IMG/VR virus record: IMGVR_UViG_3300030372_001252 | Span: 1-28,371 of that record | Length of the DNA stretch: 28,371 bases | Direction: 5' to 3' (one strand) | Origin: a virus | Taxonomy: Duplodnaviria; Caudoviricetes | Shown here: in pieces, positions 22,668 to 27,374 of the stretch | How the letters are laid out: every line of letters begins with the position of its first letter | Numbering within the stretch: the stretch's first letter is position 1 | Translations under genes and position numbers: made by a program | The notes under the pieces: model-generated | Database searches by the model: none | Told to the model about the DNA's origin: nothing | What the model saw: the letters and a program-made list of their open reading frames with translations, nothing else

Positions 22668-23813
22668 TTAGAATGCAGCGTTGCCAGAAGATCCGACAGC
22701 AGCACCAGCAACAAGTTCCACAGCAGCAGCTGGGTTTAGATAGTCGGCTCCCATTGCGAGTCTACCGAGTATCACGTCACCTTGGTAAACCACGGAAACG
22801 TCACCAGATGTTACTTGAACTTGTGGTCCGATTGCTTCAACTACACCAGCAGCTTCTTTCTGGAAGATAAGTCCACAAGAGTTAGCGAATTCTGTCTCTT
22901 CACCATACTCGTTGTTGATTCCAGTTACGTCAGCAGCAGCGTCTTCGACAGCTTCACCAACGAATGAACCTACGTTACCAGGAGATGTTACTCCAGGGTT
23001 TGTAGCAGATGCAGAACCGTACTTAGTACCATATGTTGAGAAGAAAGGTATGTTCATAGACTTGTAGATCTTGATACCAGCAATCTCAATGATTCCGTTA
23101 CCAGACTGCAAGGCTGTACCTTGTGCATCTCTGTTTACAAGACCGTTAGATCCTACAGCTTGGATAAGCTCATAGTACTGTCTTGGGTTAAGTACACCTA
23201 CACGACCTTCAGAGCTAACGCCCTTCTCGTCTAGTGCAGCTGCAGCATCGTAGAATGCATTGATTAGTGAAGCAGCAACATAAGCATCGGATGCTTGGTT
23301 GTTGGTACCTACACGAATCTGTGTTCCACCTGGCTCTACGAAACCAGACTTAGTGATAGGTGATGCAGCTCTAGCTCCACGAGCAATAGAACGGAAGATC
23401 AATCTATCATACTTTTGAGCAAGAGCGTATCCAATCTTCTTAGATATTTCTCCCCTCAATTCATAATGAGCCAATGTTTCGTCTAGCTCGTATACGAATG
23501 CTGAACTAATAAGTAGGTCATCTACTGTAATAGTCTTCTCAGCTACAGGAGGTGAACCATCACTGTTACCGAGTATGGACTGGCCTGGTACATGGTACTC
23601 GGCTTTTGTGTGTCCTGTGTAGATGAACTGTAAACTCTTACCATTTTTAAGAGTTCTCTTCATCACAAGATCCCTAGCTATTGCATTGTGCTGGAATCCT
23701 TTAAACATCTCACCTGAAAACAGCTTGAGATATAGTGCTCTTGCGTCACCCGTTGCGTTTGATTGACCTTGACGGGTTAACGAGGCATTACTATGGGTTG
23801 CCTGTTGGGCCAT
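22668..23813 (-). CDS. gp10: Major capsid protein
   Basis: ALYLKLFSGEMFKGF, RTLKNGKSLQF, EKTITVDDLLIS, GYALAQKYDRLI: T7 gp10 family. Confidence 0.96.
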   Translation of the reverse strand: MAQQATHSNASLTRQGQSNATGDARALYLKLFSGEMFKGFQHNAIARDLVMKRTLKNGKSLQFIYTGHTKAEYHVPGQSILGNSDGSPPVAEKTITVDDLLISSAFVYELDETLAHYELRGEISKKIGYALAQKYDRLIFRSIARGARAASPITKSGFVEPGGTQIRVGTNNQASDAYVAASLINAFYDAAAALDEKGVSSEGRVGVLNPRQYYELIQAVGSNGLVNRDAQGTALQSGNGIIEIAGIKIYKSMNIPFFSTYGTKYGSASATNPGVTSPGNVGSFVGEAVEDAAADVTGINNEYGEETEFANSCGLIFQKEAAGVVEAIGPQVQVTSGDVSVVYQGDVILGRLAMGADYLNPAAAVELVAGAAVGSSGNAAF

Positions 23814-23872
23814 TGTTAAATGTTAAATGATATGTACTTTCTTCAGCTGAAATTTTTTTGATCAGTTTTGTT

Positions 23873-23928
23873 GTGGTCTATCCCACCGTCTAGACGGCAT
23901 GAGGGTATCCCCGTGGGGGCCAGATGCC
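23873..23928 (-). promoter_or_regulatory. GC-rich structured leader upstream of the capsid gene
   Basis: GGCAT/ATGCC outer stem enclosing CCCC-CAC-GGGG, then a GTCTA/TAGAC stem. Contains the 12-bp palindrome CCGTCTAGACGG (23886-23897). Confidence 0.5.
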
Positions 23929-23930
23929 AA

Positions 23931-24050
23931 TTAGTTAGAGGTCCGACATTGAGGTGTCTCTAACCTATGATAATTTAAGTGTGCTGTTTCTACAGCAATA
24001 AAAAAGGCTAGTAATCCGAAGACCACTAGCCATAATTCATTGATTTTCAA
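23931..24050 (-). CDS. Possible 39-aa single-TM peptide (TTG start; KINELWLVVFGLLAFFIAVETAHLNYHRLETPQCRTSN)
   Basis: The TTG overlaps the upstream TGA (TTGA) with GAGGAGG upstream. It has a hydrophobic core but overlaps a terminator hairpin. Confidence 0.45.
   Translation of the reverse strand: MKINELWLVVFGLLAFFIAVETAHLNYHRLETPQCRTSN
24000..24031 (-). terminator. Intrinsic terminator closing the psbA/riboswitch cassette
   Basis: GGCTAGTGGTC-TTCG-GATTACTAGCC (cUUCGg tetraloop, 11-bp stem with two G-U pairs) followed by TTTTTT. Confidence 0.85.
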
Positions 24051-24181
24051 AGCGTTGAAAGAGCCTCCTCTAGGGAGATGTCCTCATCGAACTTTTCTTC
24101 TTTCTTTACTTCCTCTTTCACTTCTGGTTCAGGAGAAATCCTTGTTACAAAAGCAGGGGAATGTGTAGCTTGTTGTGCCAT
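24047..24181 (-). CDS. 44-aa acidic peptide with a capsid-like N-terminus (MAQQATHSPAFVTRISPEPEVKEEVKKEEKFDEDISLEEALSTL)
   Basis: Hand-translated. TAATG overlap with the YRG peptide stop. Confidence 0.7.
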   Translation of the reverse strand: MAQQATHSPAFVTRISPEPEVKEEVKKEEKFDEDISLEEALSTL

Positions 24182-24288
24182 TAGCAATAAGTTTTCTTGG
24201 TGTATGATACGCCACGATACTTGAGTTTAGTTAGTCTCTTAAAAGCTTCTTGCTCTTTGATGCGAGCTTGGAGTTCTAGTGCTGACAT
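24181..24288 (-). CDS. DUF4278-type 'downstream peptide' (MSALELQARIKEQEAFKRLTKLKYRGVSYTKKTYC)
   Basis: L.YRGV.Y motif, GAGG RBS 8 nt before the ATG, directly behind the riboswitch. Confidence 0.82.
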   Translation of the reverse strand: MSALELQARIKEQEAFKRLTKLKYRGVSYTKKTYC

Positions 24289-24305
24289 AGTTAATACCTC
24301 TAGTA

Positions 24306-24358
24306 CCTAAGCCCCGTTCCATGCTCAGGTTTCATGCGTCCTATAACAGGATGAACGG
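24306..24358 (-). ncRNA. Glutamine-II riboswitch (Downstream-peptide RNA motif)
   Basis: CCGTTCATCCTGTTATAGGACGCATGAAACCTGAGCATGGAACGGGGCTTAGG. P1 is CCGTTC/GAACGG, P2 is TCCTG/TAGGA, and the pseudoknot is CCTGAGC/GCTTAGG. Conserved CGTTCA, GACGCA and ATGGAACGGGG are present, with a YRG peptide downstream. Confidence 0.88.
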
Positions 24359-24367
24359 ACGTGACGT

Positions 24368-24424
24368 TTATTTCTTAGGGGGTCTCCCTTTCTTGGTACC
24401 GTATGTACCTTTTCCTTTAGGCAT
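24368..24424 (-). CDS. 18-aa basic peptide [18 protein letters not shown] (AT-hook-like GRP)
   Basis: Strong GGAGGT Shine-Dalgarno inside the psbA 3' end. The ATG lies within the last psbA codons. Confidence 0.65.
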
Positions 24425-25478
24425 TTTGAATCACCTCCGATGATGTTGATGCGAGATCAAGTGGAAAATTATGAGCGTTTCTTTCATGCATTACTTCCAT
24501 ACCTAGATTAGCACGGTTTAATACATCTGCCCAAGTAGGGACAACCCTACCTCCTGTGGCTAACACGGACTGGTTGAAGTTGAATCCATTGAGATTAAAA
24601 GCCATAGTGGAGATTCCCATACTGGTAAGCCATATGCAAACGACGGGCCAAGTAGCAAGGAAGAAATGTAGGCTACGACTATTGTTAAAGCTGGCATATT
24701 GGAAGATAAGTCTCCCAAAGTAGCCATGAGCCGCAACAATGTTATACGTCTCCTCCTCTTGACCGAATTTATATCCATAGTTCTGCGAGGTAAGCCCAGT
24801 CGTTTCACGAATGAGCGAAGATGTAACAAGACTTCCGTGCATAGCAGCGAATAAAGCTCCACCGAATACCCCTGCAACACCGAGCATATGGAACGGATGC
24901 ATGAGGATATTATGTTCTGCCTGGAAGACAAACATAAAATTGAAAGTCCCTGCAATACCAAGAGGCATTCCATCACTGAAACTTCCTTGCCCAAATGGGT
25001 ATACAAGGAAGACCGAGAAGGCTGCTGCCACTGGTGCAGAATAAGCGACACATATCCATGGTCGCATTCCTAGTCTATAACTAAGTTCCCATTGTCGTCC
25101 CAGGTATGCTGAGATACCGATAAGAAAGTGGAACACAATAAGTTGATATGGTCCTCCGTTATACAACCACTCGTCGAGGGTTGCAGCTTCCCAGATTGGG
25201 TAGAAGTGAAGACCGATTGCATTGCTTGACGGGACAATGGCACCCGATATGATGTTGTTTCCATAGAGTAAAGAGCCAGCTACGGGTTCACGTATACCAT
25301 CTATGTCAACAGGTGGAGCAGCTATGAAAGCTACTATGAAAGCTGTTGTAGCAGTTAAAAGTGCAGGGATCATTAGCACACCAAACCACCCCACGTAGAG
25401 GCGGTTATCAGTGCTAGTAACCCAGTCACAAAAACTCTGCCAGTTGGTATTTGGTTTTGTTAGTGTGGCTGTAGTCAT
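24417..25478 (-). CDS. psbA: Photosystem II reaction centre D1 protein
   Basis: [50 protein letters not shown] and Mn-cluster ligand motifs are intact and the ORF is uninterrupted. Confidence 0.99.
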
Positions 25479-26537: not shown

Positions 26538-27374
26538 TTAAAACTCCAAGTTGTCAGATCGTTCTAGTTTTGCGATAACATCTTGCCTATAAGCAGGGTC
26601 GTTATCATACCTTCTATCACTCATAGCTGCAACTAATTCTGCTTGACTACGGTAGACATCTTTTGTATTAGTGGGTGCTTTACCTGTTAACATTGTACCT
26701 TCATATCCATTTGAGTTTTCATACTGTGCTTTGAGTCCAGAGACTGCTAGTTTGATAGCTTCTACACTACCTGAATTTATTATACTATCAAAAGCTTCAA
26801 TAGAAGTTGTAGGTAAATTCTCACCAGCCCACTGTACCATATTATTATATGCTGTCTCTCCACCAGCAGCATTCTTAACTTCATTTACTACAGCAGTACT
26901 TATATCTGCTACCTCTGCTTCTTGTGAAGCCTGTGGTAGTTGACCTTGTACTTGCATGTAAGCTTCAACCAATTCCTGACTACTCATGCTAGAAAATTTA
27001 GCTATAGTCTCAGGTGTTAGTTCTCCTTTTTCACTAAATTCATTAGATGCTGAAGTTATTAACTCAGCCGCTGCAGAAGGTTGTGAAGTTTCTTCTGTTT
27101 CTTCGCTATCTTCTTTCGACTCAGTAGGTTCGGAGTCCCCAGCTGATTCGCTATCTTCATCACCTTTTTCTCCAAGTTTTTTTTGAAGTTCTCCATAGGC
27201 TTTTTCTAATTCTTGTGCTGACTTATATTTACCAGCAAATAACTGTTCTTGTTCTTGTTGTATACTTTCTCCTACTTGCAGTGAGTCTTGCTCTTCAGCT
27301 GTAAGTTGTACACCTTCAGCTTCTCCAGCTACTTCTGCTTGTGGAGTTCCGTCTACTGTTAATGTTTCTGCCAT
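26538..27374 (-). CDS. gp9: Capsid assembly (scaffolding) protein
   Basis: Acidic, with FAGKYKSAQELEKAYGELQKKLG and YRSQAELVAAMSDRRYDNDPAYRQDV. Follows the portal. Confidence 0.92.
   Translation of the reverse strand: MAETLTVDGTPQAEVAGEAEGVQLTAEEQDSLQVGESIQQEQEQLFAGKYKSAQELEKAYGELQKKLGEKGDEDSESAGDSEPTESKEDSEETEETSQPSAAAELITSASNEFSEKGELTPETIAKFSSMSSQELVEAYMQVQGQLPQASQEAEVADISTAVVNEVKNAAGGETAYNNMVQWAGENLPTTSIEAFDSIINSGSVEAIKLAVSGLKAQYENSNGYEGTMLTGKAPTNTKDVYRSQAELVAAMSDRRYDNDPAYRQDVIAKLERSDNLEF

Follow-up and report, generated by a model that had tools for sequence, protein, structure and literature searches.

The 44-aa ORF at 24047–24181 on the minus strand of the window (the whole stretch of 28,371 nt analysed here) encodes a free-standing copy of the N-terminus of the major capsid protein of the same phage. 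Our family analysis, together with a PHROGs match (phrog_23119), showed that this N-arm mimic gene is a real, selected and widespread accessory gene of marine cyanopodoviruses which is apparently undescribed. It is conserved, selected at the protein level and optional in its presence; it co-varies with the capsid of its own phage, and its tails are exchangeable. These sequence patterns suggest that the peptide probably docks at the N-arm binding site of the capsid. More tentatively, we propose that it docks in the N-arm groove of the capsid E-loop, probably at the portal-vertex sites that have no donor arm.

The window was identified as part of a T7-like marine cyanopodovirus by its gene content and its Pfam and PHROGs matches. 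Its minus-strand order is portal, scaffold, hli, outer-membrane-protein (OMP)-like gene, psbA, capsid and tail genes. The scaffold proper lies at 26538–27374, and psbA (24417–25478, minus strand) belongs to an upstream hli-OMP-psbA accessory block. The major capsid gene (22668–23813, minus strand) is T7 gp10-like (PF21703; phmmer E 1e-170 to the P-SSP7 capsid 2XD8), and its product is 85% identical to the P-GSP1 capsid. Between psbA and the capsid gene there are, all on the minus strand, a glutamine-II (type 2) riboswitch aptamer at 24306–24360 (Rfam RF01704; 49.3 bits against a gathering score of 33), a 35-aa DUF4278 (IF17-like) ORF at 24181–24288 (E 3.6e-5; 24.5 bits, just below the 25.3 cut-off), the 44-aa ORF, whose start overlaps the stop of the 35-aa ORF (TAATG), and a terminator-like hairpin with a T run at 24006–24031, 16 nt past the peptide stop. 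A similar hairpin was found at most 80 nt away in 29 of 204 loci.

Some neighbouring elements were also observed. A TTG-started 39-aa ORF (23931–24050, minus strand), with one hydrophobic stretch and a weak match to phrog_27060, runs through the terminator-like hairpin. In L067, L085 and L438 the hairpin carries compensating changes while the 39-aa reading frame stays similar, which could mean either dual use or an ORF that is the shadow of the hairpin. The capsid leader (about 23850–23970, minus strand) contains conserved non-coding elements at fixed distances before the capsid gene; among 313 loci, CACCTCA..GTCGGAC was found in 163, a GGATACC-like element in 258 and a CCGTC.AGACGG-like element in 284. 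These elements had no Rfam match at the gathering score and are possibly a phage promoter or a structured leader. At 24367–24423 (minus strand), an 18-aa basic micro-ORF overlaps the psbA stop; it recurs in many loci (L005, L009 and L011 among them), often accompanied by further short Lys/Arg-rich ORFs.

The peptide starts MAQQATHSPAFVTR and the capsid protein starts MAQQATHSNASLTR, with 368 nt between the two start codons. Residues 1–8 are identical and 11 of 14 match, and 5 of the 7 codons after the ATG differ, including Ser TCC versus AGT. Over residues 2–14 there were 10 matches out of 13. Both strands of the window were screened for Met-started frames no shorter than 20 aa, and of the 359 obtained the next best, capsid aside, had 5. 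The match is thus far beyond chance, and everything that the earlier note had read from the letters (the 8 identical residues, the 11 of 14 matches, the synonymous codon changes and the TAATG overlap) was confirmed. The mimic motif comprises peptide residues 1–14 (24140–24181, minus strand), of which Q4 and A10 are invariant in 85 aligned members, and the copied segment is capsid N-arm residues 1–14 (23772–23813, minus strand), of which Q4 is invariant in 93 aligned capsids. The rest of the peptide (24050–24139, minus strand) is a variable tail with PEPE, rich in E and K and ending in ISLEEALSTL, which is an exchangeable module among relatives. No locus agrees better with its own capsid than the window, whose 9 of 12 is a value common to 9 of 139 loci. 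Contigs of two RNA libraries cover the ORF (X1 24097–24231 and X2 24041–24308), though contigs prove neither transcription nor its level.

The window peptide matched the phrog_23119 profile over residues 1–41 (E 3.8e-6), and the 9515-10a protein matched it with E 5.6e-30. Members of phrog_23119, such as CYOG_00040 of 9515-10a and CYPG_00031 of NATL2A-133, occupy the same place upstream of the capsid gene, and the group is listed in PHROGs as of unknown function. No phrog_23119 match was obtained in the PHROGs profile search for the four-cysteine-tail form of S-RIP2, and the P-GSP1 member is missing from the annotation of its record. We collected 630 loci through capsid, riboswitch and motif searches; with the window included, 518 of the 631 sequences contained the capsid start, and there were 364 distinct capsid 5′ ends. 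By a position-specific score made from 45 peptide seeds, the upstream ORFs fell into two clear groups; 200 loci were above the cut-off, 5 were added by hand, and L375 was later removed as false. Of the loci from the capsid search, 194 had 600 nt or more of upstream sequence, and 134 of these carried the gene (a count that predates the removal of L375); with 2,400 nt or more, it was 56 of 86. Cultured carriers include P-GSP1, P-SSP10, 9515-10a, NATL2A-133 and S-RIP2.

The gene occurred only alongside capsids with a [Q/H/F]Q extension, in 134 of 185 such loci and in 0 of 9 others, which leaves 51 of the 185 loci with the matching arm type but without the gene. The mimic was present in 0 of 15 P-SSP7-type loci, whose capsid has no xQ extension, and in 0 of 34 distinct Syn5-like loci (50 fetched). 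The complete genomes of S-TIP37, P-SSP7 and Syn5 do not contain the gene, which is therefore dispensable. P-SSP7 (gene 028; L081 3578–3697) and P-SSP2 (L090) have at the same position a 39-aa ORF with a PSY-type tail and without the N-terminal motif, and their capsids carry a different arm.

The N-terminal motif is the only part shared among the family members. The tails of 191 relatives were classified as acidic LEEAL (60), PSY-ending (29), basic four-cysteine (45) and other (57); these figures, like those given below for upstream genes, stop-start overlap, the ribosome-binding motif, codon identity, dN/dS, serine and four-fold codons, the N83/D85 pair, and scaffold, adaptor and portal, include 7 mis-anchored peptides. 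The basic four-cysteine module, which replaces the acidic tail (for example in S-RIP2, L086 3687–3839), had no PHROGs match. The earlier note had described the peptide as acidic like a scaffold; this is true of the window's tail, but it is not a family trait, given the 45 basic tails. A T7-type scaffold (gp9) identity was likewise rejected on these 45 tails and on the lack of a PF05396 or other Pfam match. No folded oligomeric domain was found in the peptide by Pfam or by PDB sequence search, the latter giving only chance matches (E 4.6–9.9). Family members are at most 74 aa long, with tails that are of low complexity or short and four-cysteine, and no long fused form was found among 40,055 frames. 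A 281-aa protein ending in the whole peptide, on one 1.1-kb contig (1 of 7,998 scored candidates), was discarded as a probable chimera. In P-SSP10 (L083 3420–3635) the peptide runs on into the hydrophobic ORF to give a 71-aa product; this may be a sequencing error, because the close relatives 9515-10a and NATL2A-133 have no such read-through.

Co-variation of the peptide with its own capsid arm was analysed in 191 pairs, kept from 205 candidates of which 192 had sufficient capsid sequence. At position 3, capsid and peptide (in this order) agreed as H-H in 78, Q-Q in 69, F-M in 18 and F-F in 2 pairs, and disagreed as Q-H in 21 and H-Q in 3; the F-M pairing is a single clade and counts once. On a tree of the capsid core, with the arm left out, about 11 of 16 independent pairs differed in the same direction and practically none in the opposite one (10.6 and 0.2, with 5.3 lacking a difference; median p 0.002), so the check that the earlier note had named came out in its favour. 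The contrast between own and other similarity over six residues was positive in 34 and negative in 12 of 55 pairs, and remained so without positions 3–4 (31 versus 15 of 53 pairs). Register-shift controls gave 25 versus 18 for one residue, 18 versus 21 for two, and 9 positive versus 25 negative for three. This last control was significantly negative (p 0.009), so the p-values of the pair tests may be too generous; the core tree, too, only approximates independence, because arms and peptides recombine together. Agreement was above expectation at positions 3 and 5–8, which follow the capsid of the same phage, and not at positions 9–15 (139 loci, kinship ignored). No signal came from the N/S state after Q, for which 5 independent pairs were available.

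In the capsid tree, capsid cores that are far apart were seen to share an N-arm type and to come with similar peptides, which suggests that peptide and arm are exchanged as a block by recombination. F-type arms were also seen to accompany a swapped N83/D85 pair in the E-loop. The earlier note's idea of an N-arm mimic held by selection stands, because the ORF is conserved (in the 134 of 194 loci mentioned above), is selected at the protein level, and both resembles and co-varies with the arm of its own capsid.

The strongest link to the capsid core was found at residue 70 (K70; codon 23604–23606, minus strand). When mutual information was corrected for background over 162 variable columns (n = 190), residue 3 of the peptide was coupled to arm residue 3 (z 9.4) and to K70 (z 8.4), with the next best column at 2.6. 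Arm residue 3 was itself coupled to K70 (z 9.7), more strongly than to any other variable capsid-core column. With K70 capsids, 89 of 99 peptides had Q, M or F and 10 had histidine, while with non-K70 capsids the peptide had H in 88 of 91. Of 13 independent pairs for residue 70, 11.4 differed in the same direction and 0 in the opposite one (p 0.001); the within-class pair tests were small (3, 3 and 5 pairs). At first the peptide seemed to track residue 70 better than it tracked the arm (0.126 versus 0.079); this came in part from the 7 mis-anchored peptides, and the difference was gone after they had been re-anchored.

The best couplings elsewhere were z 3.3 for the C-terminal residues 165–272 of the scaffold (51 loci), z 1.6 for the adaptor (154 loci) and z 4.2 for part of the portal (35 loci), and K70 reached 6.9–7.7 in the same comparison. 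Because of the residue 70 coupling, and because the scaffold C-terminal domain, the adaptor and the portal part had no comparable signal, the sequence data point to the capsid itself as the likely partner of the peptide. The earlier note had proposed a mimic that binds scaffold, procapsid or a protease; of these, residue 70 speaks for the capsid, and the scaffold had no comparable coupling. The simplest reading would be a single site used by both arm and peptide. In an AlphaFold2 model of the capsid monomer, residue 70 lies in the segment ahead of the long helix 113–148; pLDDT is below 50 for residues 1–15 and 27–121, which makes the model uninformative on the arm and the E-loop. Residue 70 is placed in the E-loop since we take the segment ahead of the long helix to be the E-loop of the HK97 fold.

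The proposed mechanism is as follows. A groove on the capsid E-loop would normally receive the N-arm of the neighbouring subunit, and the peptide would dock there instead, with residue 70 probably contacting residue 3. A copy of the arm would need an empty site, and in the mature head every arm site should have a donor unless the neighbouring penton has given way to the portal. This would leave five open sites next to the portal, which lack an arm from a penton. In P-SSP7, the N-arm (residues 1–30) of the portal-adjacent subunit is disordered in all five hexons, according to the accessible part of that report (bioRxiv 10.64898/2026.08.19.745834), which indicates that arm pairing is broken at the portal vertex. 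That text concerns a donor arm without an acceptor; by reciprocity, the sites of the penton arms should be empty. The peptide would act as a small plug or cement, with its variable charged tail left on the head surface. Portal-vertex sites, other sites and a transient role all fit the sequence data equally. The P-SSP7 and Syn5 structures could not have shown the peptide, because those phages have no such gene, and for carrier phages the open-access literature yielded neither a structure nor a virion proteome. Nor did we find there, mostly in titles and the beginnings of abstracts and with subscription papers outside the scope, any description of the peptide or of a free N-arm copy; the accessible parts of PMC7885011 and bioRxiv 10.1101/326520 contained nothing relevant to it. 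With the proposed docking, a common and mostly unannotated marine cyanopodovirus gene gains a testable structural role and a named capsid residue. If the arm-less sites at the portal are indeed filled, one more part would be added to the long-studied 12:5 mismatch between portal and capsid.

Alternatively, the peptide might be a transient modulator of assembly, a chaperone or competitive brake that sits in the N-arm sites of capsid subunits or of proheads during expansion until the true arms displace it, so that it would be absent from mature virions. The same co-variation data apply to this role, and the peptide is systematically unlike the arm at positions 9–12. The accessible text of PMC9546572 also describes, for T4 and other phages, how capsid N-termini change their fold and shift outward when the head expands. 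However, heads would presumably be weakened if all 415 sites faced a free competitor, and we regard this role as rather unlikely.

In another reading, which we consider less likely still, peptide and arm would serve as a shared tag or decoy recognised by a third factor, which could be a host protease, an anti-phage sensor or the scaffold within the prohead; their link to residue 70 would then be indirect. The conditional information (0.098 versus 0.108) does not separate direct contact from tracking of the arm and is thus compatible with mere tracking; moreover, the patchy presence of the gene and its location in an accessory-gene block fit a host-facing role. Capsid N-termini are described as binding scaffold in unexpanded T7, P22 and SPP1 heads in the part of PMC9546572 available to us, but scaffold residues 165–272 had no comparable coupling in the window's relatives (z at most 3.3, n = 51). 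On non-K70 capsids, H is kept by the peptide in 88 of 91 cases and by the arm in 76 of 91, as if the peptide followed a capsid site, though the same pattern is equally expected from a lag after a recent change of the arm.

The earlier note had further suggested that the gene could tie the nitrogen status of the host to head assembly, which amounts to a riboswitch-controlled switch that responds to glutamine. The type 2 glutamine riboswitch with its IF17-like DUF4278 gene is a known separate module, and such riboswitches regulate DUF4278 genes in marine picocyanobacteria, as stated in the accessible part of PMC6212724. In the window this module is directly upstream of the peptide and coupled to it. 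Among the 156 members from the capsid search, 21 had too little upstream DNA, leaving 135 assessable loci. The riboswitch unit was somewhere upstream in 97 of these, directly coupled in 44 and further or loosely upstream in 53; it was only downstream in 21, including P-GSP1, and none was seen in 17. It was present in 69 of 76 peptide-bearing and in 20 of 35 peptide-less loci.

However, adjacency of the module to the peptide is not conserved across loci. The gene upstream of 204 members was DUF4278 in 65, OMP-like in 55, psbA in 13 and another in 27, with none found in 38 and too short a sequence in 6. In the 10 loci with the window's arm and enough upstream DNA, which are its closest relatives, 4 had DUF4278 and 6 had the OMP-like gene directly upstream. 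Stop-start overlap was found at 125 of 204 peptide starts, against 24 of 204 capsid starts, so the peptide gene couples to whichever gene precedes it. An effect of glutamine is possible in this genome, but riboswitch control is not the conserved logic of the family. Since the coupling is direct in just 44 of 135 loci and in 4 of the 10 closest relatives, a link between nitrogen and head assembly is not supported as a family trait, and as the role of the peptide it seems quite improbable.

The codons indicated that the match is kept at the level of the protein. For the 13-codon motif, dN/dS was 0.11 among closely related pairs (44) and 0.19 when pairs differing by up to 33% were admitted (72), which means purifying selection by the measure that the earlier note had suggested. 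Codons of the invariant Gln and Ala vary at third positions only; a conserved RNA or DNA motif as the cause of the match was rejected for this reason. At 138 matched serines the codon class was TCN in both genes in 54 cases, AGY in both in 17 and discordant in 67 (Fisher p 0.71), and four-fold residues matched between peptide and capsid had the same codon in 16 of 68. Private matches in differing codons were found across several lineages (L387, L438, L585, L469 and L032); the Ser-Ser of L387, for instance, is written TCA AGT in its capsid gene but AGT TCA in its peptide gene. The DNA upstream of the peptide genes is unlike that upstream of the capsid genes in the 18 loci compared. There is thus no general sign of DNA copying, in keeping with the earlier claim that the ORF is not a recent duplication. 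Rare or old copying may still have occurred, because identical codons were slightly in excess at matched residues (53% versus 48 ± 2% across genomes) and L421 has a 17-nt exact word common to both genes. That the ORF is a functionless relic, or a repeatedly re-copied capsid 5′ end, would fit this excess and this shared word, but is already largely refuted by the unrelated serine and four-fold codons, the low dN/dS and the unlike upstream DNA, and is very improbable. Low expression, argued from the ribosome-binding site, was also dropped, since few genes of either kind are preceded by the motif (13 versus 3 of 204).

By analogy, docking of the peptide at an arm site would likely work most like the cement and linking proteins that are anchored by an N-terminal strand. 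Lambda gpD attaches to the capsid E-loop through its first 14 residues, and gp25 of cyanopodophage A4 has an N-anchor (both in the accessible part of PMC12002296). Milano LP2 is a 38-residue capsid-bound protein that resembles the N-terminal strand of another protein (accessible part of PMC10491603). None of the three is described in these parts as a copy of the capsid's own N-arm, and lambda gpD and A4 gp25 have folded trimeric bodies, whereas the window peptide has none. For an N-terminal segment of the peptide that engages the E-loop, as in gpD, the coupling with residue 70 is indirect evidence. Cement and decoration proteins are optional parts, and the peptide gene is likewise dispensable.

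The most similar layout was found in T4 gp61.1, a hypothetical protein of 54 aa (phrog_1823). Its residues 2–38 align without gaps to gp23 residues 57–93 (score 82), a segment that spans the N-terminus of processed gp23; in gp61.1 the copy is followed by a K/E-rich tail. T4 gp61.1 and the window peptide are thus alike in being a free-standing copy of the N-terminus of their own capsid protein with a charged tail. They differ in that the T4 copy includes the segment before the gp23 cleavage site, which we assume to be targeting-sequence-like, while the window copy begins at Met1, and in that the gp61.1 gene adjoins the primase gene, unlike the window peptide gene. Neither phrog_1823 nor phrog_2086 was matched by the window peptide, even with E values of up to 1 allowed, and no paper on gp61.1 was found in the open-access literature. 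It is conceivable, if somewhat doubtful, that tailed phages with swapped-N-arm shells have repeatedly evolved free arm copies that fill the docking sites emptied by the portal. Present about five times per virion, such an arm copy would close off the symmetry-mismatched vertex and expose an exchangeable tail; the cyanopodovirus family and T4 gp61.1 would be independent cases. The same layout in T4 gp61.1 makes this idea testable in a standard laboratory phage.
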